A stretch of 64,000 bases of DNA from Alphaproteobacteria bacterium (GTDB taxonomy: Bacteria; Pseudomonadota; Alphaproteobacteria; UBA828): contig OZ244839.1 of NCBI GenBank assembly GCA_965220825.1, positions 3,077,280-3,141,279 of the forward strand. Reading direction: 5' to 3'. Below the pieces are notes generated by a model that saw only the letters and a program-made list of their open reading frames with translations, made no database searches and was not told where the DNA came from. This document shows, in pieces, positions 17,484 to 64,000 of this stretch. The first letter of the stretch is position 1. Each line of letters begins with the position of its first letter. The position numbers were made by a program, and so were the translations under genes.

Positions 17484-21099
<3,616 letters not shown>

Positions 21100-45587: not shown

Positions 45588-45590
45588 GAT

Positions 45591-46319
45591 TCAAGCCGCG
45601 TGCTGTTTGCCGAGATAAATATCGCGCACCTGCTGGTTCTTCTCCAGGTTCGCCATGGTGTCCTCGATCAGGATGGCACCTTGGTGGAAGACAGTCACCC
45701 GCTCCGCGATCGCCTTGATGAACTGCATGTCGTGCTCGACGACGATGAGCGAGGCAGTCTTGTTGATCTCGTGGATCAGCTCGGTGGTCTGGTGGACCTC
45801 CTCGCCGGTCATGCCGGCGGTGGGCTCGTCGAGCAGCACCAGATTCGGCTCGCCCGTGAGCACGGTGCCGAGCTCGACCCGCTGGCGCTCGCCATGGGCG
45901 AGCTGGCCCACCAGGCGGCCGCGGATCGCGCCGAGCCCGATGCGTTCCAGAATCTCGTCCACGATGCGGTTCGCCTCGCGCCGCCCGCGATGACGCCGCG
46001 CCGCCACCCAGATGTTCTCGTGGACGCTCAGCCCGTCGAACACGCTCGGCACCTGGGTCTTGATGCCGATGCCGCGCCGCGCGATCTGGTAGGTGTGGGA
46101 GCCCGTGATGTCCATGCCGCGAAAACGGACCCGCCCGGCGGTCGCCTTGTACTGGTGGGTGAGGCACTTGAAGAAGGTGCTCTTGCCCGCGCCGTTGGGG
46201 CCGATCAGGCAGCGGAGCTCCCCTTCGGCCATGGAGAAGTCCACATTGTCCACGGCGACCACGCCGCCGAAGCGCATGGTGAGTCCCTGGGTCTCCAGAA
46301 TGGGAGGGGTTTCGGTCAT
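45591..46319 (-). CDS. urtD: urea/amide ABC transporter ATP-binding protein (UrtD/LivG-like)
   Basis: Starts MTETPPILETQGLTMRFGGVVAVDNV. Walker A GPNGAGKST, LAHGERQRVELG signature variant, LLDEPTAG. Confidence 0.75.
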   Translation of the reverse strand: MTETPPILETQGLTMRFGGVVAVDNVDFSMAEGELRCLIGPNGAGKSTFFKCLTHQYKATAGRVRFRGMDITGSHTYQIARRGIGIKTQVPSVFDGLSVHENIWVAARRHRGRREANRIVDEILERIGLGAIRGRLVGQLAHGERQRVELGTVLTGEPNLVLLDEPTAGMTGEEVHQTTELIHEINKTASLIVVEHDMQFIKAIAERVTVFHQGAILIEDTMANLEKNQQVRDIYLGKQHAA

Positions 46320-47386
46320 GGAGCCGCCTCTTCCCGCCTTGCACTGCCGCCTGCCGAGGCACCGGGCGGCCTGTCGGACCAGCCGCCCAGGACGCGCTGC
46401 ACAAGCGCGCGCGCCGTGGGCACGATACCGGCCGGCACCAGCAGGACGAACAGCATGATGATCGCGCCGAAGATCAGATAGGTGTTGGTGATCTGCTGCT
46501 GGCCGATCTCGAATTTGAGCATGAGAAGCCCGATGCATCCGATCATCGGGCCGACAAGCGTACCGAGGCCGCCGATCAGCGTCCACATGATGATTTCGGC
46601 GGCGAAGTTGAGGGCGAACACGTCCGGGTTCACGAAGGAGTTGAAGTTCACGCCCAGGCAACCGGCCAGCCCGGCGACGGCACCGCCGATGGTGAAGGTC
46701 TGCAGCTTGTGGAGCCGCACGTCGTAGCCCAGAAGTTCGGCGCGGAGCTCGTTCTCCCGGATCGCGACGGCGACCCGCCCGAAACGCGATCTCAGCAGAA
46801 GCTTGAGGCCGAAATAGCAGAGGATGAGACATCCCATGGCGAGGTGGAACACGTCGTCCGGAAAGAGGAAGGCCTTGGCGTTGCCGGGCCAGTTGATGGG
46901 CTGGATCGAGGAAATTCCGTTGAAACCCATGAGGCGCTGCTCGCCGATGGCGTATTCCTCGCCAGCGGTCGAGCGCATGAAGTTGTAGAGGATCAGGGTG
47001 ACCGCAAGCGTCACCACCGCGAGATAGACGTCGCTCAACCTGCCGTAGAACATGAAGTAGCCGAGCAGCGCCGCGAACGCCGCCGGCACGGCGATGGCGA
47101 GCAGGAAGGGCGCGGTGCTCTCCCCGATATTCCCCACGGCGATGGCGTAGGTGTAGGCGCCGAGGCCGTAGAACGCGGACTGGCCGAAGCAGAGGATGCC
47201 GCCATAGCCCCAGATGAAGCCCATGGAGAGCGCGAGGATCGCCATGGCGACGAAGAGGGTGACCTTGAAGAGGGTGAAGAGGTCGAAGATATGCGGGCCG
47301 GCGAACAGCAGGACCACCATGACGAGTCCCACGAACGCCGTGCCCCGGGCCTCCCAGCTGCCGAGGGGGATGCGCGGCATCGTCAC
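46316..47386 (-). CDS. urtC: urea/amide ABC transporter permease (UrtC/LivM-like)
   Basis: 356 aa polytopic, branched-chain-amino-acid permease family. 4-nt overlaps with neighbouring genes. Confidence 0.75.
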   Translation of the reverse strand: MTMPRIPLGSWEARGTAFVGLVMVVLLFAGPHIFDLFTLFKVTLFVAMAILALSMGFIWGYGGILCFGQSAFYGLGAYTYAIAVGNIGESTAPFLLAIAVPAAFAALLGYFMFYGRLSDVYLAVVTLAVTLILYNFMRSTAGEEYAIGEQRLMGFNGISSIQPINWPGNAKAFLFPDDVFHLAMGCLILCYFGLKLLLRSRFGRVAVAIRENELRAELLGYDVRLHKLQTFTIGGAVAGLAGCLGVNFNSFVNPDVFALNFAAEIIMWTLIGGLGTLVGPMIGCIGLLMLKFEIGQQQITNTYLIFGAIIMLFVLLVPAGIVPTARALVQRVLGGWSDRPPGASAGGSARREEAAP

Positions 47387-48252
47387 AGCGAGCGCCGGAA
47401 AATCTTGCCGGTGATGCCCTGCGGCAGCAGCCGGAGCATGACCACGGCGACGATCAGCAGGCCGACGCCGCCCAGCACCGGCGTGAACTCGTAGCTCAGA
47501 AGCTGGCGCACGGTGCCGAACACGCCGGAGGCGACCAGCGTGCCGGTTACCGCGCCGCTGCCGCCGGTAATCACGGTAATGAAGGTCTGCGCCACATAGG
47601 CGGCGCCGGCCGTCGGGATCACCTGGGAGATTGGTGCGAGCAGGCCGCCGGCGAGCCCGGTTATCGCCGCACCGACGGCGAACGTCACCATGTAGACCCG
47701 CTGCGGGCTGATGCCGAGCGCCGAGGCCTGGCTCGGGTTCTGCATGGTGCCGCGGGCGATCAGTCCCATGCGGGTGCGGGTGAGCGCGAGATAGAGCGCA
47801 ACGAAGAGCAGGACGACGATGCCGATAAGAACCATGCGGTACTGTGCAATCTTGTAGACGCCGACGTCGAAGCTTCCCATGGGCGCGGAGACGCCCTCGA
47901 TCACGTTACCGAAGATCGCGGTCACGATGCCGATGAGCAGCAGGCTGAGCCCCCAGGTCGCAATCAGCGTGTCGACCATCCTGCCGTAGAAGAAGCGGAT
48001 GAAGGTGCGCTCGACGACGATGCCGATAAGGCCCACGACAATGGGCGAGATTATCAGCATCGAGATCCAGATATTGATGCCGAGGGTCTTGGTGCAGACC
48101 ACCGTGGTGTAGGCCCCGAGCATCATGAACTCGCCATGGGCGAAGTTGATGACCCGCATCATGCCGAAAATGATCGCCAGCCCGGCGCAGGCGAGCGCCA
48201 GGCTGGCAATGCCGTTCAACACCTCGATGACGAGCAGCGCGGCCGTATCCAC
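47383..48252 (-). CDS. urtB: urea/amide ABC transporter permease (UrtB/LivH-like)
   Basis: 289 aa polytopic LivH-family permease. Confidence 0.75.
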   Translation of the reverse strand: MDTAALLVIEVLNGIASLALACAGLAIIFGMMRVINFAHGEFMMLGAYTTVVCTKTLGINIWISMLIISPIVVGLIGIVVERTFIRFFYGRMVDTLIATWGLSLLLIGIVTAIFGNVIEGVSAPMGSFDVGVYKIAQYRMVLIGIVVLLFVALYLALTRTRMGLIARGTMQNPSQASALGISPQRVYMVTFAVGAAITGLAGGLLAPISQVIPTAGAAYVAQTFITVITGGSGAVTGTLVASGVFGTVRQLLSYEFTPVLGGVGLLIVAVVMLRLLPQGITGKIFRRSL

Positions 48253-48300
48253 GGCGCGGCCCTCTGCGGCGCCCGTCCGCTCTGCCGTTCGGAAGCGCGC

Positions 48301-49548
48301 CTAGAGAATCGGCTCGAGATGCGCGTCCATGTCCGGCGTCTTGGTCAGGTCGCAGCGGTCGATCACGTCACTGGGATACAACTGCGAGAAACTCTCGAAG
48401 ATGTCCCAACTCCGGTCCTTGCACACGGCCATGTGCATGTCCTGGACGACGTGGTTGGTCACCGGATCCACCACCATGCGACCCGACGGTCCGTCCCAGG
48501 CGATGTCGCCGCTGCGGAGCGCCGCCATCACCGCCTCCCGCTCGTGGCTTCCGGCGGCCTTGACGCCGAGCGACCACAACATGGTACCGAGATAGCCGCC
48601 GATGCCCACCGAGTTGAGATATTGAGCCTGGTCGCCGAAGCGTTCCTGGTAGCGCTTGACGAAGTCCACATTGGCGGGGAGCTGGAGTTCCTGGAAGTAG
48701 GGCTGGGCGCTGACGATGCCGTTGCCTTCCTCCGCGCTGAGCTGGATATGCTCGTTGCCCACTCCGAACGTCACCGAGACGATGGGGATTTCGTTCAGCA
48801 TGCCCGCCGCATACCACTGGCGATAGAAGCCGGTATGGGCGGCGCCCACGAGACAGGTGGAGAGCCAGTCGGGCTTCGCCTCCTGGATCTTGGCGATCGC
48901 CGGGCCGAACTCCGACACGTCGAGGGGGAAGAAGTCCTTGGTGACGACCTCCGCGCCGTGCTCGCGCGAGAAGAACTCGGTCCACTTGCCGATGATCTGG
49001 GGCGCGTTGTAGTCCGCACCGATGTAGTAGCAGCGCTTGCCGTGAGTCCTGAAGCCATAGTCCGCCATGGGCTTCACCCACTGCACGGCGGTGACGCCGC
49101 TTACGAAATTGTTGATGTCGCAAACCCCGCCCTCATAGATGACGCTGTACCAGAGCAGGGTCTGGAAACGCCGGAGGATCGGGCGGATGACCTCGCGCGA
49201 GGCACTGGTGATTCCGCCATGCACCAGATCGACCTGTTCCTTGAGCGCGGCTTCCTGCGCATATTGCGCATAGAGCTCCATGTTGGACTGCGGGTCGTAC
49301 TTGATGAGCCGGACCTTCTTGCCCAGGAGGCCGCCCGATGCGTTTATCTCCTCGACCGCGAGCTCGCAGGTCTGGGTCATGGGCGTGCCGTAGATGTCGA
49401 GACCGCCCGACTGGTCGAAGATGCTGGCAATGACGATTTCGTCGTCCTGGGCGTAAGCCTTGGGCGATGCGGCGAGACCCGCAGCCACCAGCGTGGCGGC
49501 CGTGCCGGCCGTGCCTTTCAAGAACTGTCTCCGGTTCGTCTGGAACAT
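48301..49548 (-). CDS. urtA: urea/short-chain-amide ABC transporter substrate-binding protein (UrtA/FmdD-like), Tat signal
   Basis: MFQTNRRQFLKGTAGTAATLVAAGLAASPKAYAQ twin-arginine signal. About 415 aa type I PBP with UrtA-like length and composition. Confidence 0.75.
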   Translation of the reverse strand: MFQTNRRQFLKGTAGTAATLVAAGLAASPKAYAQDDEIVIASIFDQSGGLDIYGTPMTQTCELAVEEINASGGLLGKKVRLIKYDPQSNMELYAQYAQEAALKEQVDLVHGGITSASREVIRPILRRFQTLLWYSVIYEGGVCDINNFVSGVTAVQWVKPMADYGFRTHGKRCYYIGADYNAPQIIGKWTEFFSREHGAEVVTKDFFPLDVSEFGPAIAKIQEAKPDWLSTCLVGAAHTGFYRQWYAAGMLNEIPIVSVTFGVGNEHIQLSAEEGNGIVSAQPYFQELQLPANVDFVKRYQERFGDQAQYLNSVGIGGYLGTMLWSLGVKAAGSHEREAVMAALRSGDIAWDGPSGRMVVDPVTNHVVQDMHMAVCKDRSWDIFESFSQLYPSDVIDRCDLTKTPDMDAHLEPIL

Positions 49549-49745
49549 GGCTTCTGGTCCTCCCTTCCTCGGTTCCGTAACGCCTCCCGGTACGAGCGGG
49601 CGGCCGGGCCGCCAGGCGCTTCTTCCGGCGTCGCGACAGGTTAGGCATGGCGCACGGCCCGCGCAACGCCTTGTCCTCGTTCAGGACGCTTGAGACGCTG
49701 GAGTATCTTCGGCGGTCAGATTGGAAGGGCATGTCGGCCTGTGTG

Positions 49746-50906
49746 CTATGCGGCGAAGCCGAGGGTGCGTTCGACGAACGCGTGCAATATCGCCGCCGCA
49801 TCGACCATCTGGGCGAGCGGCACATGCTCGTTCGCGGCGTGGCTGGTGGCGCCGTTGCCGGGGCCGAAATTCACGATCTCGATGCCGTCCCGGGCGAAGA
49901 AACGGCCGTCGCTCGCGCCGAGTGCGTCGAGCACCGCCGGCGCCCGCCCCAGGTGCTCTTCGGCGGCTGCGGCGAGCGCCGAGACGAACGGTCCGTCGGG
50001 GGCGGCGGCGTAACCCGGCGTGCCGACCAGACGGCGAAGCGTGTAGGAGCCGGCGGGCTCGCCTGCGCCCGCGAGAACGGCCTCGATCTCGGCCGTCGCC
50101 GCATCGACCGGCTCGTCCGGCAGCAGGCGGCGGTCGATCCGGGCGACGCAACGGTCGGGCACGACGTTCGGGTTCTCGCCGGCGTGGATGGTGCCGATAT
50201 TCATGGTGGAGGTCTTCGCGCCGTCCCGCCGGGACGCGAGCTTCGGTGCGAGCGTCGTGTCGAGGCGGTCCAGCAGGCGCATGGCGCGAAGGATGGCGTT
50301 GTCGCCGGCGGCGGGGTCGCCCGCATGGGCGGCGCGGCCCGAGGTCTCGATCTCGAGCCACAGAATGCCGCGCTCCTCGACGACGAGCTCGTTCTCCGTC
50401 GGTGCGCCGAGCACCAGGGCGTCCGGCGCGATCAGCCCTTCCTCGCGGAGGAAGGCCGTGCCCTCCGTTCCGAGGCGCTCCTCGTCGCCGGCGAGTACGA
50501 AGACCAGGCTGCCGCGCGCCGGCCCGCCGCGCTTCGCCACCTCGCCCGCGAGCCACAGATGGACCGCAGCCGATCCCTTGCAGTTGTTCGCGCCCAGGCC
50601 GCAGATATTGCCGTCCACCATGGTCGCGGCGAACGGATCGGTACGCCAGGCCGCGGCGTCCCCGGGGGCGACCGTGTCCACATGGGCGTTGAACAGGAGG
50701 CACGGCGCGCCTTCTCCGAGCTGCGCAACCAGATTGGCGATGGGCGGAGTCCGCATTGCCACGTCCACCCGGTAGCCGTCCGCCCGCAGCCGGTCGGCCG
50801 CAAAGTCGCAGACTGCCCGTGTGTCCCCGGGCGGCGTGATGGAGGGGATGGCGATCAGTGCGGCGAGCAGGTCGTGCAGCGCCTCGGCCGACTTGTCGTC
50901 GCTCAT
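49746..50906 (-). CDS. M20 family metallo-amidohydrolase (ArgE/DapE/acylase-like)
   Basis: 386 aa. Metal-binding blocks NAHVDTV, LAGDEE, and C-terminal HAANEHV. 4-nt ATGA overlap with the upstream hydrolase gene. Confidence 0.75.
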   Translation of the reverse strand: MSDDKSAEALHDLLAALIAIPSITPPGDTRAVCDFAADRLRADGYRVDVAMRTPPIANLVAQLGEGAPCLLFNAHVDTVAPGDAAAWRTDPFAATMVDGNICGLGANNCKGSAAVHLWLAGEVAKRGGPARGSLVFVLAGDEERLGTEGTAFLREEGLIAPDALVLGAPTENELVVEERGILWLEIETSGRAAHAGDPAAGDNAILRAMRLLDRLDTTLAPKLASRRDGAKTSTMNIGTIHAGENPNVVPDRCVARIDRRLLPDEPVDAATAEIEAVLAGAGEPAGSYTLRRLVGTPGYAAAPDGPFVSALAAAAEEHLGRAPAVLDALGASDGRFFARDGIEIVNFGPGNGATSHAANEHVPLAQMVDAAAILHAFVERTLGFAA

Positions 50907-51805
50907 GCCGATGCGCCGCCGCTGGTATCGGCCGGCGTGATCGCCGAGTCGGTTAGGGAGCGCGGGTCGCGTACGCCCCAGGTGCCGCGTTCCACCCGGG
51001 CGAAGAAGTCGTCGCAGGCGCGATTGAAGGCCTCGGGCTCCTCCAGGTTGATGGTGTGGCCTGATTTGGGGATCGCGAGCAGGCCCGCCGTCGGGATCGT
51101 ACGCTTGAGGTAGAGGGTCGCGTCGAGGCAGGGCTCGTCCTCGTCGCCCACGATCAGCAGCACGGGTAACGTCATGCGCGAGAGGCCTTCCTCCAGGTCG
51201 TAGAGCGAAGGCCGCCGGGCCTGGACGCCGCGCAGGGTGTTCGCCGAGCCCGTCGCCGAGTGCGCCATCAGTTGACTGCGAAACGCGGCCCAGCCCTCCG
51301 GGTCCTTGTTCTGGAACTGGACGCGCGCGGGCCCCAGCGCATAGTCCGCACCGACGACCGTCGCGCCCTCGCGCTCGAAGCGGTCGGCAACGGCTTCGGT
51401 CTCCGACTTGAAGCCCGGACGCGCCGTCTTCCGCGCGCCGTAGCCGCAACCCGCGACCACCAGGGCGGAGGCGCGCTCGGGGCAGCGCAGCCCGATATGG
51501 AGCGCGGCGAAGCCGCCCATGCTGAGGCCGATGATATGGGCGCGGTCGATTCCCAGACGGTCGAGGATGGCGAGCGCGTCGTCCACCGCCCGCTCCTGGC
51601 CGTAGGCCTCCTTCGCCGCCGGGACGTCGGAGGGCGGATAGCCGCGGGCGTTATAGGCGATGCAGCGGTAGCGCGCGGCGAAGTGGCGCAGCTGAGGCTC
51701 CCAGCTTCGCCAGTCCCCGGCGAATTCGTGGATGAAGAGCAGCGGCGGGCCGTTGCCTGTCTCTTCGTAATAGAGCTTGATACCGTCCGAACGCGCGTAG
51801 GGCAT
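50903..51805 (-). CDS. alpha/beta-fold hydrolase
   Basis: 300 aa. Nucleophile elbow GLSMGG, HEFAGD oxyanion region, C-terminal His block (KSGHTINLEEPE). Confidence 0.7.
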   Translation of the reverse strand: MPYARSDGIKLYYEETGNGPPLLFIHEFAGDWRSWEPQLRHFAARYRCIAYNARGYPPSDVPAAKEAYGQERAVDDALAILDRLGIDRAHIIGLSMGGFAALHIGLRCPERASALVVAGCGYGARKTARPGFKSETEAVADRFEREGATVVGADYALGPARVQFQNKDPEGWAAFRSQLMAHSATGSANTLRGVQARRPSLYDLEEGLSRMTLPVLLIVGDEDEPCLDATLYLKRTIPTAGLLAIPKSGHTINLEEPEAFNRACDDFFARVERGTWGVRDPRSLTDSAITPADTSGGASA

Positions 51806-51923
51806 TGCGTTTCTCCCATTGCAGCCATGATAGCGAGTCGGGAGGCCGGTGCACCTGTTCATGCTATGATGCGCGCGAGCCAACGGTATCGCACCGTGTT
51901 CGGACAACGTTTGGAGCGGGGTC

Positions 51924-52835
51924 ATGTGTGGAATTGCGGGCGTCATGTTCAAGCATGGCGGCACCGGCCTGGAGGCCGGCCGCGCGCTGATCGATATGCT
52001 CGACGGCTGCCAGCACCGCGGACCGGATTCAACGGGCTTCGCGCTCTATGAGGAAGCGCGCGAGGGCGAGCTCAGATTCCGTTTCCTCGTGGGTGAGGGC
52101 GCCGGCAGGGACGATTCGATCGCGCGCATCCGCGGCCTCCTCGAGGAGAAGGGCGCGGAAATCGTGGACGACGAGCAGGTCGGCAACAGCTACCGCGCCG
52201 TCGTGCGCTTCTCCGGCGACGTTCAGAAGCTCGCCTACGAGATGGAGAACGCGGCGACACTCGTTTCCATCGGTGAGAGCCTCGACATCCGCAAGGATGT
52301 GGGCGGTGCGCACGATGTGGACGAACGCTTCCAGGTGAGCGCCGTAAGGGGTACGCACGGGCTCGGCCATGTCCGGCTCGCCACCGAATCGGACGTGAAG
52401 CCCGAGGCGGCCCATCCGTTCTGGGCCACGGGTTTCACCGACATCGCCATCGTGCATAACGGTCAGATCACCAATTATTGGAAGATGCGCAGGCGGTTGG
52501 AGCGGCGGGGCTTCGAGTTCCATACCGACAATGACAGCGAGCTGATCGCCGTCTATCTCGCGGACAAGCTCGCGAACGAGGCGACGCTCGAGGACGCGCT
52601 GAAGACCTCCATCGAGGACCTGGACGGCACGTTCTCCTTCCTGGTCTCCACCAAGGACGAAATCGGTTACGCCAAGGACCATCTCGCCGCCAAACCCATG
52701 ATCATGTACGAGAACGACGACATGATCGCCATCGCGTCCGAAGAGGTCTCGCTCAACCGCCTCTTCCCGGGCCGTGCGCTCGACACCCGGGAACCGCCGC
52801 CAGGGAGCTACGGTACATGGTCCAGGTCGATCTAG
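51924..52835 (+). CDS. class-II (Ntn) glutamine amidotransferase domain protein (GlxB / N-methylglutamate synthase subunit A-like)
   Basis: N-terminal MCGIAG nucleophile Cys2, about 303 aa stand-alone GATase-2 domain. Confidence 0.75.
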   Translation: MCGIAGVMFKHGGTGLEAGRALIDMLDGCQHRGPDSTGFALYEEAREGELRFRFLVGEGAGRDDSIARIRGLLEEKGAEIVDDEQVGNSYRAVVRFSGDVQKLAYEMENAATLVSIGESLDIRKDVGGAHDVDERFQVSAVRGTHGLGHVRLATESDVKPEAAHPFWATGFTDIAIVHNGQITNYWKMRRRLERRGFEFHTDNDSELIAVYLADKLANEATLEDALKTSIEDLDGTFSFLVSTKDEIGYAKDHLAAKPMIMYENDDMIAIASEEVSLNRLFPGRALDTREPPPGSYGTWSRSI

Positions 52836-54802
52836 GCGAAATCGCCGTACGCGAAGCCAACGAGGCGATCCGCGAATATGGCGCCCGTGGCGAGGATGTG
52901 GAGGTTCTCAACCCGGACGCACGGCACCATATCGGGGTCGGCCTGATCCATCCCGTCACGGTGCGGGTGCGCGGCTCGGCGGGCTATTTCTGCGCGGGCC
53001 TCGCCGACCGGGCGCGCTTCGAAATCGATAACAATGTGGGCTGGGGCCTGGGCGACAACATGTATTCCGGCACCGTGATCGTCCGCGGCAATGCGGGCGC
53101 GATCGCGGGTGTCGCCATCCGGGGTGCCGAGATCGTGATCCACGGCAATATGGGCTCCCGCGCCGGCCAGGTGATGAAGGCCGGCACGCTGTGCTGCGTC
53201 GGCAACGCCAACTTCATGGCGGGCTACATGATGTATGGCGGGCGCATCATCATCCTCGGGGAATCCGGCGAGCGCGTGGGCGAGGACATGTCCGCCGGCG
53301 AAATCTATATCGGCTCCCGCATCCATAGCCTGGGCTCGGACGCGGAACTCGCCGACATCGAGGCGTCGGAACTCGACGGCGTGCGGGAGTTCCTGGACCG
53401 TCACGAGATCCCGTTCAAGGGGGGCTTCCAGAAGGTGGTGAATGCGGGCAAGCGGCTGCGCTACGCCACCTCGGAGCGGCAAGTGCGCAGCATTCCGTTC
53501 TTCACCTTCTCCGGCAAGTCGGACTACTGGAACGACAAGGTCCAGGAGGACATCTACATCAAGTCCCAGATCGGGCGTTACCGGGTGCGGGGGTATGGCG
53601 GTGCGCGGGAGCTCCCGCACCTCTCCGACATCGCCTTCCGCAAGGATCTCTCGTCGGCGGGCACCCGGGGCGACCCGGTGGCGGCGGTCGAGATGCGGAC
53701 GGAGATCGGCGGGTTGAACGGTGCGCGCCCGCTCTCGCTCTCCATGCCGGTGATGATCGCGCCCATGAGCTACGGCGCGCTCTCACGTTCCACCAAGCAG
53801 GCGGTGGGCATGGCGTCCAGCATGGCGGGAATCGCCGAGAATACGGGCGAAGGTGGCATGAGCGACGCCCAGCGGGGTGCGGCGGAACAGCTCGTCTTCC
53901 AGTGCCTGGGCGGGCGGCTCGGCTGGAACATCCACGACATGAACCGTGCCGACGGGCTCGAAATCTATATCAGCCAGGGCGCGAAGCCCGGTTTCGGCGG
54001 CCAGCTCATGGCGAAGAAGGTCACGAAGGAGCTTGCCACCATCCGCGGCATCCCCGAGGGGATCGATCTGCGCTCGCCCTCGCGCCACCCCGATATCCTC
54101 GGTGCCGACGATCTGGTCATCAAGGTGGAGGAGTTCCGGGAGGCGACGGGCTACCGCATCCCGGTGAGCGTGAAGCTCGGCGCGGGCCGCGTCCGCGATG
54201 ACATCAAGATTGCCTACAAGGACGGCTTCGACTTCGTGGAGCTCGATGGCATGCAGGGCTCCACAGGTGCCGGCGGCGCGGAGGTGATGGAGCATGTGGG
54301 GGTGCCCACCATCGCCGCCATCGTCCAGGCCATGCGCGCGCTGGAGGAAGTGGACGGCCTCGGCAAGATGCAGATCGTCCTCATGGGCGGCATCCGCGAC
54401 GGGGTGGACGCGGTGAAGGGCCTCTGCCTCGGCGCGGACGCCGTCGCCATGGGCACCGCGGTAATCATTGCCGGCGGTTGCATCGCCTGCATGCAGTGCC
54501 ATGTGGGCCAGTGCGTGACCGGAATCGCGACCCAGGACCCGGAGCATGAGCGCCGCTACAACCCGGTGGCGGAGGCACGCAACATCCACCGCTATCTGGA
54601 GGGGGTGCGCTGGCAGATCGCGGCGCTGACCCAGGCGCTCGGCTATTCCAGCACGGTTGATCTGAATCGCGGCGATCTGGTGGCGCTTACGCGCGATGCG
54701 GCCGAGATGACGGGCCTTCCCTACGAACCGCAATACCGGGAGCGGGAACGCGAAACCGCCCTTGCACAGCGCTTCCGCGCGGTTCGCGACGGCGTGAGCT
54801 GA
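52817..54802 (+). CDS. fused GXGXG-domain + FMN-binding glutamate-synthase-central-domain protein (GlxC-GlxD / MgsB-MgsC-like fusion)
   Basis: N-terminal repeated GxGxG beta-helix region (VRGSAGYF..VIVRGNAGAIAG..IVIHGNMGSRAG..). C-terminal PF01645-like blocks (MIAPMSYGALS, ENTGEGG, SQGAKPGFGGQL, GMQGSTGAGG, MGGIRDGVDAVKGLCLGADAV, 3Fe-4S-type CxxCxxxxC GGCIACMQCHVGQC). Confidence 0.75.
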   Translation: MVQVDLGEIAVREANEAIREYGARGEDVEVLNPDARHHIGVGLIHPVTVRVRGSAGYFCAGLADRARFEIDNNVGWGLGDNMYSGTVIVRGNAGAIAGVAIRGAEIVIHGNMGSRAGQVMKAGTLCCVGNANFMAGYMMYGGRIIILGESGERVGEDMSAGEIYIGSRIHSLGSDAELADIEASELDGVREFLDRHEIPFKGGFQKVVNAGKRLRYATSERQVRSIPFFTFSGKSDYWNDKVQEDIYIKSQIGRYRVRGYGGARELPHLSDIAFRKDLSSAGTRGDPVAAVEMRTEIGGLNGARPLSLSMPVMIAPMSYGALSRSTKQAVGMASSMAGIAENTGEGGMSDAQRGAAEQLVFQCLGGRLGWNIHDMNRADGLEIYISQGAKPGFGGQLMAKKVTKELATIRGIPEGIDLRSPSRHPDILGADDLVIKVEEFREATGYRIPVSVKLGAGRVRDDIKIAYKDGFDFVELDGMQGSTGAGGAEVMEHVGVPTIAAIVQAMRALEEVDGLGKMQIVLMGGIRDGVDAVKGLCLGADAVAMGTAVIIAGGCIACMQCHVGQCVTGIATQDPEHERRYNPVAEARNIHRYLEGVRWQIAALTQALGYSSTVDLNRGDLVALTRDAAEMTGLPYEPQYRERERETALAQRFRAVRDGVS

Positions 54803-54805
54803 GCC

Positions 54806-57322
54806 ATGACGATCTCCGAGATGGACAGTGGCGGGCAGCTTCTCGCCGAACTTCCCGACGATACCGGCGACATCCACTTCGTCCCGGCGCCTTGCCAGGT
54901 TGCCTGCCCGGTGGGCACGGACGCGCCCTCCTACATCGCCTATATCTGGGAGCGGAAGTTCGAGGAGGCATTCGAGGCCATCACGGCCACCAACCCGTTC
55001 AGCTCCATCTGCGGGCGGGTGTGCGACGCGCCCTGCGAACCGGCCTGCCGGCGCACCGATTCCGACGGGCCGGTGCAGATCCGCAACCTCAAGCGCTTTG
55101 TCATGGACGCGGTCGGCCCCGATCACGCGCTGCCGCCGGTGCCGGTGACGAAGCAGCAAACCGTCGCCGTGGTGGGTTCGGGTCCCGCCGGGATGACGGC
55201 CGCGCACGATCTTTGCGTCGCGGGTTACGAGACGCATGTCTATGAAATGACGGACCGTCTCGGCGGCATGATGGTCTGGGGAATCCCCGCCTTCCGGCTC
55301 CCGACGGGCATCATCGGGGAGGATATCGATCGCATCGCCAAGCGCTGCCCCGGAATGAAGATCCATCTCGATACCGCCCTCGGGCGGGACGTGACGCTCG
55401 ATGAGTTGAAGGAGCGCCACGACGCGGTGATCCTCGCCATCGGCGCCTGGTGGGGCAAGAAGATGGGGATCCCGGGCGAGGACGATCCGAGGGTGATCGA
55501 CGGCGTGCAGTTCCTGAGGGACGTGAATGAAGGCGCCCGGCCCGAGATACCGGAGACCGTGGTGGTGGTGGGCGGCGGCGACGTGGCGATGGATGCCTGC
55601 CGGGTCGCCAAGCGCCTCCCCGGCTGCAAGCATGTCAAGGTGATCTACCGCCGGGGTCCGGCGGAGATTCCGGCGCGCAAGATCGAACTCGAGGGTGCCG
55701 TCGCCGAAGGAATCGAGTTCGTCTACCACACGCAGCAGACGGAAATCGTGAAGGACGGCAACGGGCTCGCGGTCCGCTGCCTCCGGACGACCCTTGGCGA
55801 TCCGGACGAATCGGGCCGCCGCAGCCCCGTCAACATGCCGGGGACGGAGCATGATATCTCGTGCGGCATGGTGATAGCCTCGGTGGGCCAGGAGGGGCTC
55901 TGCGACGATCTGGACGGCCGCGGCATGATGGGGACCGACCGGGTGCGGACGGACTGGGAGACCATGCGCACGAGCGATCCCAAGGTCTTTGCGGCCGGCG
56001 ACGGCGCCTTCGGCGGCTCCACCATCGTCATGGCCATGAACCACGGCCAGCGGGTCGCCTATTATGTGAAGGCTTTCCTCGAGGGGCGGGACGATCCGCT
56101 TCCCTATCGCACGCCCTTCCGTACGCGCCGCGTACCCGTGGCGCAGGATCTGAAGTGGGAGCTGCTGCCGGTGCAGCACCCCGATTTCCTCGGTCTCGGC
56201 GAGAAGCCCGTGGAGTTCCCCGAGATCGAGACCACCTACGACTGGAATGCGGCGCGGGACGAGGCGGCGCGCTGCTTCCGCTGCGATGCGGAGACGGGCT
56301 CGGCCGACTATTCGGTCGACCACCGGGAGGATATTTTCGCCATGGCGCGCACCAACCCGGTGGATGCGGCCCGTCAGACGACGACGCTGCGCAAGCGCAT
56401 GGAAGGCCGCGACGACCCCTTCCCGCCGGAGCGCCTCGGGGTGCTCGACGACCTCGCTTTCCTTCCGGCCAACCTCTCCCGCCTCGTGATCGACCCCTAT
56501 CGGGAGGCCTGCCGGATCGACACCCGGGTGGGCGAGCTTCGCCTCGACCTTCCCTTCCTCGTCGCCGGCTTCGACACCGCGCCCGCGGATGTGCGCCGCG
56601 CGGTCGGGCAGGGCCTCGCGGAGGCCGGCGCCGCCTATCTCGGGCTCGAGCCTCTGGGCGGAGAGGCCGCTTGGTTCCAGCTCGTGATGCCGGATCAGAT
56701 TCCGCCGTCGCCCGAGGCGGCGGGTATCGTCCACGCGCTGGGCCACAGCTTCCGCCCCGTGGAGCCCAATCGCCTGCGCGAGGGCCAGGTGGCGGGTCTT
56801 GCCGTCTCCTCGCCCGCCGTTCTGGAGGAGGCGATCCCCCATGCCCTCGAAGCCGGCTTCGACATGCTGCTGCTGGACGGCAGTGCCGGTCTCGGAACCT
56901 CCTGGGCGGAACTCCAGGGCCCGCCTGACCTCACGATCCTGCGGGATGCCGTTTCCATCCTGCGCCGCCTCGGGCGCGAGGAGGAGATCGACCTGGTCTA
57001 TTTCGGCGGCGTGCGCTCCGGCACCGATGCGGCGAAGGTGATCGCCATGGGCGCGGTGGCGGTGGTACTGGGAGTCGTGGTAGGGCTCGCCGCGGGCGGT
57101 GCCGTCGACCAGACCCACGCGATGCGCTTCTCCGCCGACCGCACGGACGAGGACCGCGCGCGGGGCGCCACCAACATCGTGAAGGCGTCCGCCTCGGAAG
57201 CCTCCATGATGGCCCGCTGTACGGGCAAGACGAACCTCCAGAATGTGGAGCCCGAGGACCTGCGCGCACTGACCGCCGCCACCGCCGAAGCGACCGGCAT
57301 CCCACTCGCGGGGACGCAGTAG
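54806..57322 (+). CDS. GltD-like NAD(P)H flavin oxidoreductase fused to a second, degenerate glutamate-synthase FMN-type TIM-barrel domain
   Basis: N-terminal Fe-S Cys clusters (CQVACPVG, CGRVCDAPCEPAC), two dinucleotide-binding motifs (VAVVGSGPAGMTAA, VVVVGGGDVAMD). C-terminal about 370 aa with PF01645-like blocks (LLLDGSAGLGTS, IDLVYFGGVRSGTDAAKVIAMGA). Confidence 0.65.
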   Translation: MTISEMDSGGQLLAELPDDTGDIHFVPAPCQVACPVGTDAPSYIAYIWERKFEEAFEAITATNPFSSICGRVCDAPCEPACRRTDSDGPVQIRNLKRFVMDAVGPDHALPPVPVTKQQTVAVVGSGPAGMTAAHDLCVAGYETHVYEMTDRLGGMMVWGIPAFRLPTGIIGEDIDRIAKRCPGMKIHLDTALGRDVTLDELKERHDAVILAIGAWWGKKMGIPGEDDPRVIDGVQFLRDVNEGARPEIPETVVVVGGGDVAMDACRVAKRLPGCKHVKVIYRRGPAEIPARKIELEGAVAEGIEFVYHTQQTEIVKDGNGLAVRCLRTTLGDPDESGRRSPVNMPGTEHDISCGMVIASVGQEGLCDDLDGRGMMGTDRVRTDWETMRTSDPKVFAAGDGAFGGSTIVMAMNHGQRVAYYVKAFLEGRDDPLPYRTPFRTRRVPVAQDLKWELLPVQHPDFLGLGEKPVEFPEIETTYDWNAARDEAARCFRCDAETGSADYSVDHREDIFAMARTNPVDAARQTTTLRKRMEGRDDPFPPERLGVLDDLAFLPANLSRLVIDPYREACRIDTRVGELRLDLPFLVAGFDTAPADVRRAVGQGLAEAGAAYLGLEPLGGEAAWFQLVMPDQIPPSPEAAGIVHALGHSFRPVEPNRLREGQVAGLAVSSPAVLEEAIPHALEAGFDMLLLDGSAGLGTSWAELQGPPDLTILRDAVSILRRLGREEEIDLVYFGGVRSGTDAAKVIAMGAVAVVLGVVVGLAAGGAVDQTHAMRFSADRTDEDRARGATNIVKASASEASMMARCTGKTNLQNVEPEDLRALTAATAEATGIPLAGTQ

Positions 57323-57650: not shown

Positions 57651-58946
57651 ATGCGCGTTCACCTGAATTACGGCCGCGGCAAGCGTGCGGTAGAGCTTCC
57701 GGAGGGGTGTGACGTCACCGTCATTGCCAAGCAGGCGATGCCGGTGCTGGCGGCGCCTTCCGCCGCCATGGCGCGGGCGCTCGCCGAGCCCGTGGGCTGT
57801 GCGCCGCTCGCCAAGGAGGCCGCGGGCGCGGCGAGCGCCTGCATCCTGATCTGCGACGTCACCCGCCCGGTACCCAACGGGGTCATTCTTCCGGTTCTCG
57901 TCCGCGCCCTGCTGGGTGCCGGCCTTGCGCCCGATTCCATCACGGTGCTGGTGGCGACCGGCCTGCACCGGCCCAATGAAGGGGCGGAACTCGCGGAGCT
58001 GGTCGGCGACCCCTGGGTGCTCGAGACGGTCCGGGTCGAGAACCACTTCGCCCGCAGCGACGCCGACCACCGCTTCGTGGGCCGCACCCGGAGCGGCACG
58101 GTCGTCCGGCTGGACCGGCGCTTTCTGGAAGCGGACCTCAAGATCGCGACGGGGCTGGTGGAGCCCCACTTCATGGCGGGCTGGTCCGGCGGGCGCAAGG
58201 TGGTGGCGCCCGGCATTGCCCACGCGGAGACGGTGACGACGTTTCACAGCGCGCGCTTCATGGAGCACCCCGACTGCGCGAACTGCGTGCTGGAGGGCAA
58301 TCCGCTGCACGCGGAGCAGCTTGAAATCGTGGGCATGCTGGGGCCCTTGCGGGCGGTCAATGCCGTCATCGACGACGAGCGGCGCGTCTCCTTCCTCAAC
58401 TATGGCGAGATCGTCGCGAGCCATGCGGCGGCGGTCGGTTTCGCCGCGCCCTTCGCCACCGTGTCCGTGAGCGAGCGCTTCGCCACCGTGCTCACCTCCG
58501 CCGCCGGCCACCCCCTCGACCAGACCTACTATCAGACGGTCAAGGGCATGGTGGGACCCATGCAGATTCTGGCGCCCGGCGGGGACCTGATCGTGGCCTC
58601 CGCCTGCTCCGGCGGTTTGGGGTCGGCGGACTATGCCGAGGCCCAGCGCCGCCTGGTGGCGCTCGGCCCCGAGCGCTTCCTCGCCGGCATCGAGGGAAAG
58701 ACTCACGCCGCCATCGACGAGTGGCAGACCGAGATGCAGCTCAAACCCATGCGCGTGGGCACGATCCATCTCTTCACCGAGGGGCTCTCGGAAGAGGAGC
58801 GTGCGCTCACCGGCGTCCGCACCGTGGACTCCCTCGAGGGCGCCGTCGCCGAGGCCGCCGCGCGCCACGCCCGCAACGGCGACCGCCGCATCGCGGTTAT
58901 CCCCGAAGGCCCCTACGTCGTGCCGCTTCACCGGCACGCGGCGTAG
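57651..58946 (+). CDS. LarA-family protein (nickel-pincer-nucleotide-dependent 2-hydroxyacid racemase/epimerase-like, DUF2088)
   Basis: 431 aa. LVATGLHRP and HFMAGWSGGRK blocks characteristic of LarA N-terminal domain (Lys for NPN tethering), second catalytic His region. Confidence 0.7.
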   Translation: MRVHLNYGRGKRAVELPEGCDVTVIAKQAMPVLAAPSAAMARALAEPVGCAPLAKEAAGAASACILICDVTRPVPNGVILPVLVRALLGAGLAPDSITVLVATGLHRPNEGAELAELVGDPWVLETVRVENHFARSDADHRFVGRTRSGTVVRLDRRFLEADLKIATGLVEPHFMAGWSGGRKVVAPGIAHAETVTTFHSARFMEHPDCANCVLEGNPLHAEQLEIVGMLGPLRAVNAVIDDERRVSFLNYGEIVASHAAAVGFAAPFATVSVSERFATVLTSAAGHPLDQTYYQTVKGMVGPMQILAPGGDLIVASACSGGLGSADYAEAQRRLVALGPERFLAGIEGKTHAAIDEWQTEMQLKPMRVGTIHLFTEGLSEEERALTGVRTVDSLEGAVAEAAARHARNGDRRIAVIPEGPYVVPLHRHAA

Positions 58947-61444: not shown

Positions 61445-63469
61445 CTACGCGGCGGCGATCTCCACCTCCACGCCGTGGACGCAGGTGCTTTCGCCCATGT
61501 CGGACTTGATGCCCGGGTTCAGCACGTTCACGTTGGCGCGCGCGGCACCCTCCTGGCGCGGCCAGCGCCCCTTCGGACTTAGGGCGACGCCGGGGGGAAC
61601 GATCTCGGCGGTCTCGAGGGTGAGCGTGAGGCTTCCGGTGGCGTTGGAAAGCCGCACCCTTTGCCCCGCCGCAAGCCCCCGCGCCGCCGCATCCGCCGGG
61701 TGGAGCGTGACGGTCGCCTTGCCGAGCTGCTTCGCGATCCGCGCGTCGTTCGCGTAGGAATCGTTCATCAGCCAGGGCGAGGCCGGCGAGAGAAGCCGAA
61801 GCCCGCCATTTGTGGGGCGCGCATCCGAATCCGGTGAGGGCACGCGGGGATGGCCGTCGGCCTCGGCGCGGGACGACGCAATCTCGAACTTGCCGCTTTC
61901 CGTCGGGAAGACGAGATCGGGAAACTGGATCTCGGGCTCGGCCGAGGGGAAGACCGTGCCCTTGGCCTTGAAATCCTCGAACGTGCCGGCGATTCCCACC
62001 TGGCCCATCACGGCCGCGATGATCTCCTCGTCGCTCTCGAAGAGGGCGGGCTCGCTGAAACCCATGGCACGGGCCAGGCGGCGGAAGATCTCCTGGTTGG
62101 GGAGCGATTCACCCAGGGGCTCCTGGAGTTTGGCCTGCGTCGAGAAGGAGAGGTTGAAGTAGCCGGAGACCAGATCGTCGAACTCGAGGAAGGAAGCCGC
62201 CGGCAGGACGTAATCGGCGTAGTCCGCCGTGTCGGTCTGGAAGATGTCCACCACCACGGTAAAGAGGTCGTCCCGCGCGAGCGCCCGCTGCAGGCGCGCC
62301 TGCTCCGGGCTGGAGGCTGCCGGGTTGATGTTCCAGCAGAGGAAGGCCTGGATGTCCGCCGGATCCTCGAGACGGGCGGCGAGTTCCATCTGGCTGAAGC
62401 TCGCCGGGCTCCGGCTGAGTGCGGCGCCGCTCAGATAGTCGCCGTCCACACCTTTCCGACCGCCGCCATTGAGATAGAGCATGCCGGCGCCGGGCTTGCC
62501 GAAATTGCCCGTCGCCGCAGCCAGCAGCGCGCAGGCGCGTATCACATTGCCGCCGCGCGCCTGGCGCTGCAGCCCCTGGCCCAGCCAGAGCAGCGCCGGC
62601 CCTGCGCCATAGGCCCGCGCCGCCTCCTCGATCAACGCGGAAGCGACGCCGGTCTCCCCTTCGGCCCATTCCGGCGTCGCGGCTTGCACGGAGGGCTCGA
62701 CCTCCTCCCAGCCCACGGTGTGGGCGGCGAGGAACGCGCGGTCGATCAATCCGTCCCGCACGAGGACATGCACCATGGCGAAGGCGAGCGCCGCGTCGGT
62801 GCCGGGAAAGGGCTGGAGATGGAGATCCGCCTCGGCCGCCGTCGGATGGCGCACCGGATCCACCACGATCACCGTGCCCGGAGCCTCCTTGAGCCAGTGC
62901 TTGTGCTGATGCGGCGCGGAGGCGGAGGGGTTTGCACCCCACACCAGGATGCAGGCGGAATCTTTTGCGGTGCGCGGATCGAACCCCACTGTGGACGTGC
63001 CGATGACGTAATCGAGCGCGACATGGCCCGCCATGTTGCAGACGGTGTCGGGCTCCACTTCCCGAGCGCCGAGCCGGCCGAGAAAACGCATCGGGAAGTT
63101 GTTGGCGATCAGGGAGCAGGTGCCGGTGTAGTGGGCATGGACGATCCGGTCCGCGCCGGGGCCTTCGGCGATGGCGGCGAAGCGCGCGGCGATGTCGGAG
63201 ATGGCCTCGTCCCAGCTCACGGGCGTGAAGCGGCCTTCGCCCTTGGCGCCTTGGCGCTTGAGCGGCGTGAGCAGCCGGGCTTCGCGGTCGCGGAAGACGC
63301 CATTGTAGGCGAGCGCGCATTTGCCGCAGAGCGCACCGCGGCTCACCGGATGGTCCGGATCGCCGAGAACGCGGGTGATGGCGCCGTTCCGTCTTATGGC
63401 GACGATCCCGCAGGCGTCATAGCAGTCCCTCGGGCAGGTGGTCTTGAGAACTTCCTTCTCGCTCGGCAT
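61445..63469 (-). CDS. molybdopterin (MGD) oxidoreductase, cytoplasmic, with N-terminal 4Fe-4S cluster
   Basis: 674 aa from MPSEKEVLKTTCPRDCYDACG...CGKC (four-Cys Fe-S motif). MopB-superfamily length with C-terminal MGD-binding barrel. No Tat signal. AGGAAA RBS. Confidence 0.8.
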   Translation of the reverse strand: MPSEKEVLKTTCPRDCYDACGIVAIRRNGAITRVLGDPDHPVSRGALCGKCALAYNGVFRDREARLLTPLKRQGAKGEGRFTPVSWDEAISDIAARFAAIAEGPGADRIVHAHYTGTCSLIANNFPMRFLGRLGAREVEPDTVCNMAGHVALDYVIGTSTVGFDPRTAKDSACILVWGANPSASAPHQHKHWLKEAPGTVIVVDPVRHPTAAEADLHLQPFPGTDAALAFAMVHVLVRDGLIDRAFLAAHTVGWEEVEPSVQAATPEWAEGETGVASALIEEAARAYGAGPALLWLGQGLQRQARGGNVIRACALLAAATGNFGKPGAGMLYLNGGGRKGVDGDYLSGAALSRSPASFSQMELAARLEDPADIQAFLCWNINPAASSPEQARLQRALARDDLFTVVVDIFQTDTADYADYVLPAASFLEFDDLVSGYFNLSFSTQAKLQEPLGESLPNQEIFRRLARAMGFSEPALFESDEEIIAAVMGQVGIAGTFEDFKAKGTVFPSAEPEIQFPDLVFPTESGKFEIASSRAEADGHPRVPSPDSDARPTNGGLRLLSPASPWLMNDSYANDARIAKQLGKATVTLHPADAAARGLAAGQRVRLSNATGSLTLTLETAEIVPPGVALSPKGRWPRQEGAARANVNVLNPGIKSDMGESTCVHGVEVEIAAA

Positions 63470-63578
63470 GGCGGTTTCCTCTTGCGCGCCGCGGTCGGTG
63501 CCAGCGTAAGACGGTTTCCTTCCAAATGGAATCGCTCCAGGCTTGCGGCCGTTGCGAGATGTGTGGGGAGGAGTCGTC

Positions 63579-64000
63579 ATGCGGGAGGTAACGCTGCCGT
63601 CGGGAGAGCGCGTGCCGGCGCTGGGCCAGGGCACGTGGCGCATGGGAGAGAAGCGGAGCGCCTTCAAGGAGGAGGTGGCGGCGCTCCGCCACGGCATCGC
63701 CCGCGGCATGACCCTGATCGACACGGCCGAAATGTACGGCGACGGCGGTGCCGAGCGGGTGGTGGGCGAGGCGATGCGTGGACAGCGGGATTCGGTTTAT
63801 CTCGTGAGCAAGGTCCTGCCGCAGAACGCCGGGCGCAAGCGGCTCGTGCGCGCCTGCGAGGCGAGTCTGGAGCGGCTGGGGACGGACCGTCTGGATCTCT
63901 ACCTGCTGCACTGGCGCGGTAGCGTTCCGCTGGAGGAGACGGTGGAAGGCTTCCTCGCCCTCCGGGAGGCCCGGAAGATCCGCGCGTTCGGGGTCAGCAA
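63579..64000 (+). CDS. aldo/keto reductase (partial, runs off window end)
   Basis: [24 protein letters not shown]...[20 protein letters not shown]...LDLYLLHW: AKR catalytic Asp/Tyr/Lys/His blocks. Confidence 0.75.

Follow-up and report, generated by a model that had tools for sequence, protein, structure and literature searches.

What kind of enzyme is encoded where every module of a glutamate synthase (GOGAT) is found, in an atypical arrangement, on three adjacent genes? The genes lie at 51924-57322 on the plus strand of a 64,000-nucleotide stretch of DNA (the window) from an alphaproteobacterium of the GTDB lineage UBA828 (assembly GCA_965220825.1, contig OZ244839.1, positions 3,077,280 to 3,141,279 of the forward strand). 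They form one cassette: a glutamine amidotransferase gene, which is part of the same unit; a gene for a synthase subunit with a GXGXG beta-helix and a flavin mononucleotide (FMN) barrel (gene 1); and a gene that joins a GltD-like NAD(P)H reductase to a second, degenerate TIM barrel, here called TIM' (gene 2). On balance, and judging from the sequences, we favor the reading that the three genes encode a single heteromeric enzyme of the glutamate synthase family, an unrecognized lineage of NAD(P)H-dependent GOGAT in which TIM' would have a structural role. All of the GOGAT modules are present and their catalytic motifs are conserved, which makes an enzyme of this family the simplest reading.

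The amidotransferase and synthase subunits

The first gene (51924-52835, plus strand) encodes a 303-residue class II glutamine amidotransferase of the N-terminal nucleophile (Ntn) type, GlxB/MgsA-like by its Pfam matches (GATase_6 and GATase_7) and 36.6% identical over its full length to the MgsA proteins of Pseudomonas and Rhizobium. Its N terminus reads MCGIAG, so that Cys1 is exposed once the methionine is removed, and residues C2, R151, N179-G180, and D204 are 96 to 100% conserved in a 58-sequence alignment of the window protein and 57 homologs. The gene overlaps gene 1 by 19 nucleotides, and gene 2 starts 4 nucleotides past the stop codon of gene 1. The window has a G+C content of about 67%, and the two larger genes are plus-strand open reading frames at exactly 52817-54802 (661 residues) and 54806-57322 (838 residues), both with a third-position G+C content (GC3) of 0.87, typical of real genes in this window.

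A preliminary description of the locus had proposed that gene 1 (52817-54802) fuses a GXGXG domain to a complete FMN/Fe-S domain of the PF01645 type, and this is borne out. Pfam places the GXGXG beta-helix at residues 32-175 (52910-53341, plus strand; PF01493, E = 8e-14) and the catalytic FMN barrel at residues 305-610 (53729-54646, plus strand; PF01645, E = 9e-90), and tblastn shows residues 1-635 to be collinear with the adjacent glxC and glxD genes on plasmids of Rhizobium and Pseudomonas at 35 to 39% identity. Taken separately, the GXGXG domain is 35% identical to Rhizobium MgsB, and the FMN part shares 40% identity with MgsC and 33% with Escherichia coli GltB. The barrel carries the motifs APMSYGALS, TGEGG, QGAKPGFGGQL, DGMQGSTGAGG, and GGIRDGVD, which are 83 to 100% conserved at most positions in an alignment of 55 sequences (the window protein and 54 homologs), and the synthase-site motifs of GltB (MSxGALS, GEGG, QGAKPGEGGQL, GGTGA, and DGGxxTG) are all found in it.

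Two features of this barrel separate it from MgsC. A four-Cys motif, C555-x2-C558-x2-C561-x4-C566 (54479-54514, plus strand), predicted to bind the electron-accepting Fe-S cluster, falls in the alignment on the Cx5Cx4C 3Fe-4S motif of E. coli GltB and is 94 to 96% conserved in the same 55 sequences; the barrel of the archaeal-type split GOGAT P0261 bears the same CxxCxxCxxxxC motif, whereas it is missing in five of the six MgsC sequences checked, which have a Cys-free insert (ALGDN...DDWxxGxDPAGITTQD). The second feature is [ST]GEGG, present in 119 of 120 relatives as well as in E. coli GltB and one archaeal-type barrel, in contrast to the TGDGG of all six MgsC sequences; in the literature on ferredoxin-dependent glutamate synthase (Fd-GltS), the glutamate of this motif is a catalytic residue of the synthase site. 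The remaining MgsC-type gene, on plasmid 1 of Paraburkholderia caribensis (L111), has TGDGG yet carries C...CxxCxxxxCP ahead of VTTQD, unlike the other five, so some Mgs-like enzymes may bind an Fe-S cluster.

The electron-input subunit

Gene 2 (54806-57322) had been described as a GltD-type flavoprotein fused to a second PF01645-like barrel, a reading with which Pfam, BLASTP, hhalign, and AlphaFold all agree. The GltD/NfnB-like module occupies residues 28-430 (54887-56095, plus strand) and comprises an Fe-S domain (Fer4_20, residues 28-102, E = 7e-23) followed by flavin adenine dinucleotide (FAD) and NAD(P)H Rossmann domains (Pyr_redox_2, residues 119-414, E = 2e-29). It is 33% identical to E. 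coli GltD, and an NADPH-type site, GGGDVAMD...YRRG, can be read directly in the translation. All eight cysteines that two [4Fe-4S] clusters require can be found, but they are not all N-terminal, as the preliminary description had it: six are (C30, C34, C69, C73, C77, and C81), and C490 and C493, in the sequence RCFRCD, are located past the flavoprotein module. Both are invariant in an alignment of 92 sequences. The surrounding residues 463-497 (...EAARCFRCD; 56192-56296, plus strand) align by phmmer to residues 15-49 of Pyrococcus furiosus NfnI and Xfn, and on that alignment the segment is a copy, in permuted position, of the RCxxC element that NfnB and GltD have at their N terminus.

The top solved relatives of this module in phmmer are the GltD-like chains of NfnABC and StnABC, together with NfnB and GltD. 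The NfnABC and StnABC chains also head the Foldseek list, to which dihydropyrimidine dehydrogenase (DPD) is added over a longer, poorly superposed alignment. In these chains the RCxxC element is likewise placed C-terminally, but they run on into molybdopterin-type domains and not into a barrel as gene 2 does. Set against the stand-alone GltD of about 470 residues, the gene 2 protein has the same fold and the eight cysteines, with RCxxC at residues 490-493 and about 340 extra residues. The AlphaFold model of the full-length protein has a confidence (pLDDT) of 80 and a pTM of 0.66.

A public database entry (P0267) is 100% identical to the gene 2 protein, and source names are generic ("FAD-dependent oxidoreductase," "glutamate synthase beta subunit-like"). 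The NCBIfam models TIGR01317 and TIGR01318 score under their cut-offs for gene 2, and none of the three cassette proteins brings any NCBIfam model to its curated cut-off. The literature on GXGXG fusions, glxBCD, N-methylglutamate (NMG) synthase with gltD, and glxD in Desulfo-organisms yielded nothing that describes the cassette architecture, in keeping with the earlier view that it is atypical.

The degenerate barrel

TIM' spans residues 546 (approximately) to 838 of gene 2 (56441-57319, plus strand). Its PF01645 match is weak but above threshold (residues 680-763, with 22.6 bits where the cut-off is 20.4, E = 7e-5), and Pfam adds an FMN_dh match at residues 726-775. By BLASTP, residues 501-838 are 28% identical to the gene 1 barrel over 174 residues (E = 2e-11), a match that covers strands 6 to 8 and the C-terminal helices. 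A profile-profile comparison of the TIM' family with the gene 1 barrel family (hhalign) gives a probability of 97.9% and an E value of 4.6e-13 and places the C-terminal region with the PF01645 type rather than with an unrelated fold. TIM' is closer to MgsC than to the gene 1 barrel: with Rhizobium MgsC it shares 35% identity over 192 residues (E = 4.5e-22, BLASTP), plus a second match that corresponds to the pre-barrel segment. AlphaFold, from 85 sequences, models it as a regular eight-stranded TIM barrel with a pLDDT above 90 across the barrel, and the top Foldseek matches of that model are FMN- or IMP-type TIM barrels, namely, those of glycolate oxidase, flavocytochrome b2, IMPDH, and IDI-2.

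The barrel had been said to keep the block GG(V/L)R(S/T)G(T/R)D and to be degenerate elsewhere, and the multiple alignment supports both halves of the statement. The phosphate-binding loop GGVRSGTD (residues 734-741; 57005-57028, plus strand), which aligns with GGIRDGVD of gene 1 and is retained in the multiple alignment as GGVRSGTDAAK, is invariant or nearly so in 92 homologs, with G734, G735, R737, S738, G739, T740, and D741 invariant. Also retained are a pre-barrel segment, LDDLxFLPANLSRLVIDPYREAC, and a C-terminal segment, EASMMARCTGKTNLxNxEPEDLRALT...PLAG, both of which are common to MgsC and, in part, to the archaeal-type barrels; the MgsC-specific motifs YRExC and ARxCGKxxLxNLEPEDLxALT...PLAGT are present in TIM'. 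The N-terminal motif LPANLSRLVIDPYREAC (residues 553-569; 56462-56512, plus strand) is made up of invariant columns in alignments A1 and A2, and its general form, DDLxFL..SR....YRExC, is shared by TIM', MgsC, and the archaeal-type barrels. Lost or replaced are MSFGALS, the QGAKPGxGG loop for 2-oxoglutarate, about 42 residues around RHPD...VK, GGTGA, and every cysteine of the Fe-S motif. Apart from the pre-barrel motif, the N-terminal half of TIM' cannot be aligned with PF01645 barrels, whereas strands 6 to 8 and the C-terminal helices align significantly. TIM' is a true paralog, as far as these comparisons tell, of the GlxD/MgsC-type barrel, without its substrate loop or its Fe-S ligands. It is not a decaying domain, since it is 55 to 80% identical across phyla and has dozens of invariant columns in 92 homologs, polar residues of the catalytic face among them.

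The central domain of canonical GltB is an alpha/beta barrel in truncated form, and an analogous structural role is for that reason proposed for TIM'. TIM' was also considered as an ortholog of this domain, and the idea was rejected. No Pfam match to the central domain (PF04898) was found in the cassette proteins, and hhalign against a central-domain profile of 17 sequences (E. coli and 16 plasmid-borne gltB genes) was nonsignificant in local, low-mact, and global modes (P of 0.08 to 0.09). The sole resemblance is a 7-residue coincidence, IDP(Y/L)REA, with the QVTNPPIDPLREA motif of E. coli, in one sequence. As the profile comparison is nonsignificant, the likeness of TIM' to the central domain is an analogy and a functional speculation, and any similarity of role can be suggested only in those terms.

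Distribution and fusion forms

An exhaustive HMMER search with TIM' alone over 1.84 billion cluster representatives gave matches in 63 clusters at E <1e-30 and in 511 at E <1e-3. The matches reveal three arrangements. The split form, as in the window, has a GltD-TIM' protein of 809 to 857 residues; a total fusion, GXGXG-FMN-GltD-TIM', is made as one chain of 1486 to 1510 residues; and a third form, GXGXG-FMN-TIM' without GltD, of about 1010 to 1070 residues, is found in Desulfobacterota. A query of the Desulfobacterota type (P0132) is about 70% identical over GXGXG-FMN to proteins of both the split and the fully fused forms. The attachment of the degenerate barrel to the electron-input subunit, which the preliminary description had stressed, therefore holds for the window but is only one of three solutions; TIM' is found on either subunit and is therefore a part of the assembly, functionally on the synthase side, rather than of electron input itself.

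When one genome per GTDB species was scanned, TIM' relatives were confirmed at no fewer than 582 loci, and the best 80 of these were compared. All 80 are from metagenome-assembled genomes (MAGs), mainly of marine Alpha- and Gammaproteobacteria, with Planctomycetota, Acidimicrobiia, and Acidiferrobacterales in addition. The order amidotransferase, GXGXG-FMN, GltD-TIM' is preserved in every locus with enough flank, and the GltD-TIM' gene never stands without both upstream genes where the flanks suffice. In 82 loci the amidotransferase was found 63 times, GXGXG-FMN 64 times, and GltD-TIM' 74 times, the remainder being cut by contig ends. The order is kept in 63 to 64 loci across Alphaproteobacteria, Gammaproteobacteria, and Planctomycetota at 53 to 90% identity, and GXGXG-FMN is 72 to 90% identical even between phyla.

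Proteins that appeared to consist of TIM' alone (entries of 220 to 580 residues in a word-indexed search) were set aside: the two followed up were truncated or frameshifted copies, and the full searches corrected the picture. Such damaged copies, which dominated that search, include a 464-residue remnant of a GltD-TIM' gene, with several transposase genes upstream and dimethylformamidase genes a few kilobases away (L001, 8001-9395), and a GltD-TIM' gene that is split into three calls (L002, 6644-9578). A TIM' search of plasmids returned only a partial match of the MgsC type, and therefore no plasmid-borne copy of TIM' was found in cultured strains.

Comparison with known systems

The GltB-GltD enzyme of E. 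coli and Azospirillum brasilense has the same chemistries and cofactor sites as the cassette (an Ntn Cys1, an FMN barrel with QGAKPGxGG and GEGG, a Cys cluster at the same place in that barrel, a GXGXG domain, and a GltD-type FAD/2x[4Fe-4S] reductase), and it, too, holds a second degenerate barrel. The architecture is nonetheless different. The cassette distributes five modules over three polypeptides in another order, in which GXGXG precedes the barrel, whereas in GltB it comes after it, and the order PF00310-PF04898-PF01645-PF01493 on a single chain of about 1500 residues that defines E. coli GltB is not found (PRK11750, 148 bits against a cut-off of 1047). The cassette amidotransferase is a 303-residue protein of the PurF/GlmS-like type (PF13522), whereas that of GltB is a 420-residue PF00310 domain; Pfam finds no PF04898 central domain in the cassette, while GltB has one; the cluster motif has four cysteines rather than three; the RCxxC element is permuted relative to GltD; and the reductase carries the degenerate barrel as a fusion. 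Identity to GltB and GltD is only about 33%.

The closest sequences, at 35 to 41% identity, are those of GlxBCD/MgsABC, the NMG synthase (with MgsC as its FMN subunit) of methylamine utilizers such as Rhizobium, Pseudomonas, Aminobacter, and SAR11, which shares the gene order A-B-C with the cassette and, at some loci, a neighborhood of type III glutamine synthetase (GS III), FolD, Sox, and ammonium transporter (Amt) genes. In the cassette, however, the B and C parts are fused, and it has in addition a reductase of the GltD-like kind and an extra barrel, both of which are missing in the canonical clusters examined. Archaeal-type split GOGATs (the P0261 type) have the same type of barrel as gene 1, with CxxCxxCxxxxCP, TGEGG, and a DD(I/L)..LPAQ...YRE.C segment, and, as in the cassette, their amidotransferase and GXGXG parts are not built into large subunits of the GltB style; their electrons, however, enter through a fused N-terminal 2x[4Fe-4S] ferredoxin domain instead of a GltD module, and they have no TIM'.

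The GXGXG-FMN-TIM' proteins of Desulfobacterota are members of the same family. In them TIM' follows the catalytic barrel in one chain, and the amidotransferase gene is upstream; they are annotated as "glutamate synthase-related protein" or "GlxD" and are uncharacterized. As this form has no GltD module, its electron donor is presumably ferredoxin.

DPD resembles gene 2 in that a GltD-like NADPH/FAD/2x[4Fe-4S] module is followed by a TIM barrel, but that barrel is a catalytic FMN barrel of the dihydroorotate dehydrogenase (DHODH) type with a further Fe-S domain, whereas the barrel of gene 2 is of the GlxD type and has no C-terminal Fe-S domain. DPD was tried as a structural relative of the whole of gene 2 and discarded. 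The full-length model spans both regions in an alignment of about 900 Foldseek columns, with a root mean square deviation (rmsd) of about 18 Å and a TM-score of 0.43, no better than with GltD alone; the resemblance of DPD is therefore limited to the order of the domains. The cassette falls outside GltB, MgsABC, and DPD, yet the system would work most like a GOGAT.

Genomic neighborhoods

Outside the three cassette genes, the neighborhood varies among loci, and two contexts bear on function. In Desulfococcus multivorans, Desulfospira joergensenii, and Desulfosarcina variabilis, the form without GltD lies between an Amt gene and a gene for a type I-like glutamine synthetase (GS), with a P-II gene ahead of Amt in Desulfococcus and Desulfospira and a sigma-54 regulator upstream in Desulfospira. 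A locus with P-II, Amt, and GS is one of classical ammonium assimilation, and such contexts indicate glutamine as the donor. Amt, GS, and GlnE genes also recur near the cassette in MAG loci.

The other context is that of the NMG pathway. In 14 of the 80 loci, mostly gammaproteobacterial or from Acidiferrobacterales and some alphaproteobacterial, a GS III gene (TIGR03105, 667 bits) is near the cassette, and in 12 it follows directly. The GS III proteins are 62 to 66% identical to GlnT of the Rhizobium NMG cluster, and the SoxB-family protein of these loci is 44 to 47% identical to the Rhizobium one. Many of the 14 also have FolD, SoxB-family, and SoxA-like genes and an upstream Amt gene, not all of them in every locus. 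In these loci the cassette occupies the place that mgsABC has in canonical mgsABC-gmaS-folD/sox clusters; the SAR11 cluster has the layout glxBCD-glnT-soxBDAG (PMC3160333). One more Desulfobacterota locus has SoxB-SoxD-SoxA upstream.

The window shows neither context: a tblastn search of its 64 kb for GS III, FolD, SoxB, SoxA-like, and Amt proteins gave only two distant matches of the DAO family. Downstream of the cassette, after 329 nucleotides, is a LarA-like gene (Lar_N and LarA_C; 57651-58946, plus strand), of a family of nickel-pincer hydroxyacid racemases and epimerases. A LarA-like homolog is at the same position in 24 of the 80 loci (the window and 23 others), never together with the GS III context. 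On the other side, a minus-strand block at 44859-51964, divergent from the cassette, comprises genes for an alpha/beta hydrolase and an M20 peptidase together with five genes for a Liv-type ABC transporter, the binding protein of which bears a twin-arginine translocation (TAT) signal. The hydrolase and M20 genes adjoin the cassette in about 20 related loci. In the 24 loci with the LarA-like homolog, genes for an M20 peptidase, a hydrolase, and a Liv-type transporter are often upstream.

A YbaK-like tRNA_edit gene (PF04073) recurs beside the cassette or its GS neighbor in seven alphaproteobacterial MAG loci and in Desulfobacterota (L047, 10425-10958; L104, 17593-18096; L105, 11995-12462; L106, 11841-12311). 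In a metagenomic locus encoding a total fusion of 1501 residues, an MTTB-family (trimethylamine methyltransferase-like) gene lies two genes downstream, after a GS gene (L107, 13400-14854).

A probable rearranged NAD(P)H glutamate synthase

How might the cassette work as a glutamate synthase? The amidotransferase subunit would use Cys1 to hydrolyze the amide of glutamine to ammonia, which the GXGXG-FMN subunit would add to 2-oxoglutarate, FMN then reducing the resulting imine to glutamate. Electrons would pass from NAD(P)H to FAD and through the two [4Fe-4S] clusters of the GltD-like module to the synthase barrel and its four-Cys cluster. TIM' would be a structural module of the synthase side that holds the subunits together and helps to shape the interface between amidotransferase and synthase, a role that may be like that of the GltB central domain. 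We infer that the three proteins form a complex, and the natural single-chain fusions point the same way, to parts that work together as one enzyme.

Several observations weigh against this reading. The comparison of TIM' with the central-domain profile of GltB is nonsignificant (P about 0.08), and both GlxBCD/MgsABC and the archaeal-type enzymes manage without a TIM'-like domain. The phosphate loop of TIM' is intact and many polar residues of the catalytic face are invariant, a degree of conservation that seems to exceed the needs of a scaffold. The cassette is exactly at the mgsABC place, beside GS III, in 14 of 80 loci. Finally, the neighbors in the window are the LarA-like gene, a major facilitator superfamily (MFS) transporter, and the M20 peptidase, hydrolase, and Liv-type ABC transporter genes, not GS or Amt.

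Alternative readings

The alternative that survives best, although we think it rather unlikely on the sequences at hand, is that the cassette encodes a reductive, NAD(P)H-dependent relative of NMG synthase. The amidotransferase would then hydrolyze gamma-glutamylmethylamide, the product of a GmaS-type GS III, or another gamma-glutamyl alkylamide, and the freed amine would be added reductively to 2-oxoglutarate, coupling the use of methylated amines to nitrogen assimilation. MgsA, MgsB, and MgsC are the closest relatives of a characterized type (35 to 41% identity, against 33% for GltB), TIM' is most like MgsC, and the cassette has the gene order mgsA-mgsB-mgsC. The 14 loci with GS III (immediately after the cassette in 12), FolD, SoxB-family, SoxA-like, and Amt genes have the NMG layout and make such a variant conceivable in some lineages, and the SoxB-SoxD-SoxA genes upstream in one Desulfobacterota locus and the MTTB-family gene near one full fusion are in line with it. 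The catalytic barrels argue the other way, with five of six MgsC proteins lacking the Fe-S cysteines and all six having TGDGG, whereas both the cysteines and [ST]GEGG are present in the cassette family, as they are in GOGAT. Nor do the canonical NMG clusters examined need a reductase gene; the contexts of P-II, Amt, and type I GS are those of classical ammonium assimilation; and the window has no GS III, FolD, or close SoxB homolog within its 64 kb.

A second alternative concerns TIM' itself, which may be a working site for a second FMN or another phosphorylated ligand and, as such, a second redox or regulatory center, for example, an electron branch point as in the Nfn and Stn relatives. The intact and invariant phosphate loop would fit such a site, as would an invariant polar cluster on the C-terminal face of the barrel (D590, W623, Q625, D691, W700, E702, R737, and D741), the very high identity across phyla, the fold matches to FMN-dependent oxidases, and the fact that the GltD-like module has its best solved relatives in the bifurcating NfnABC and StnABC complexes. 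We nevertheless consider it improbable: the elements that hold the isoalloxazine and the substrate (MSFGALS, QGAKPGxGG, and the RHPD..VK strand region) are missing or replaced, there are no adjacent Fe-S ligands, and TIM' is also present in forms without any GltD module.

That gene 2 alone is a DPD-like two-domain oxidoreductase, its adjacency to GlxBCD-like genes being metabolic and not physical, is very improbable, for although it has the domain order of DPD and the long Foldseek alignment, the superposition is poor (rmsd of about 18 Å, TM-score no better than for GltD alone), TIM' derives from GlxD/MgsC rather than DHODH and lacks the active-site loops, natural fusions join TIM' to GXGXG-FMN with and without GltD, and gene 2 is always accompanied by its two upstream genes in loci with enough flank.

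Other genes of the window

The window contains dnaA (14556-16049) and gyrB (18466-21099), both on the plus strand, and therefore spans the chromosomal replication-origin region; the cassette is about 37 kb from dnaA. Elsewhere are an RPE65-type carotenoid oxygenase gene (6637-8202, minus strand), a cytochrome P450 gene (43286-44785, minus strand), and a molybdopterin oxidoreductase gene with an Fe4S4 domain (61445-63724, minus strand), which as far as examined have no relation to the cassette.

Significance

Nitrogen enters biomass through glutamate synthase, whose enzymology is built on two architectures, GltBD and Fd-GltS, together with a split archaeal form that has been little studied. If the three genes do encode a rearranged NAD(P)H glutamate synthase, the cassette would be a fourth, conserved arrangement, in a family that is widespread and uncharacterized. 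A more speculative extension, to which we give little weight, is that TIM' may be a recognizable version of the step behind the GltS central domain, a duplicated FMN barrel that lost its cofactor and substrate loops and was recruited to organize the assembly of amidotransferase, synthase, and reductase, and the family a missing link from GlxBCD and archaeal split forms to GltBD. The family may then serve many uncultured marine bacteria, as well as sulfate reducers, as their main GOGAT and may be, in some lineages, a hitherto unknown NAD(P)H-dependent N-alkylglutamate synthase for the assimilation of methylamine.

In current annotation the cassette is divided between the labels "glutamate synthase-related protein" and "FAD-dependent oxidoreductase," so that metabolic reconstructions may miss a GOGAT or miscall the cassette as an NMG synthase. 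That the degenerate barrel can be borne by one subunit or the other, or be part of one continuous chain, makes the family a natural experiment on what a duplicated barrel contributes to coupling with the amidotransferase, a question that bears equally on the GltS central domain. With cultured strains of Desulfococcus, Desulfosarcina, and Desulfospira at hand, the family is directly testable, and what it does would be relevant to both nitrogen assimilation and the evolution of flavoenzymes.

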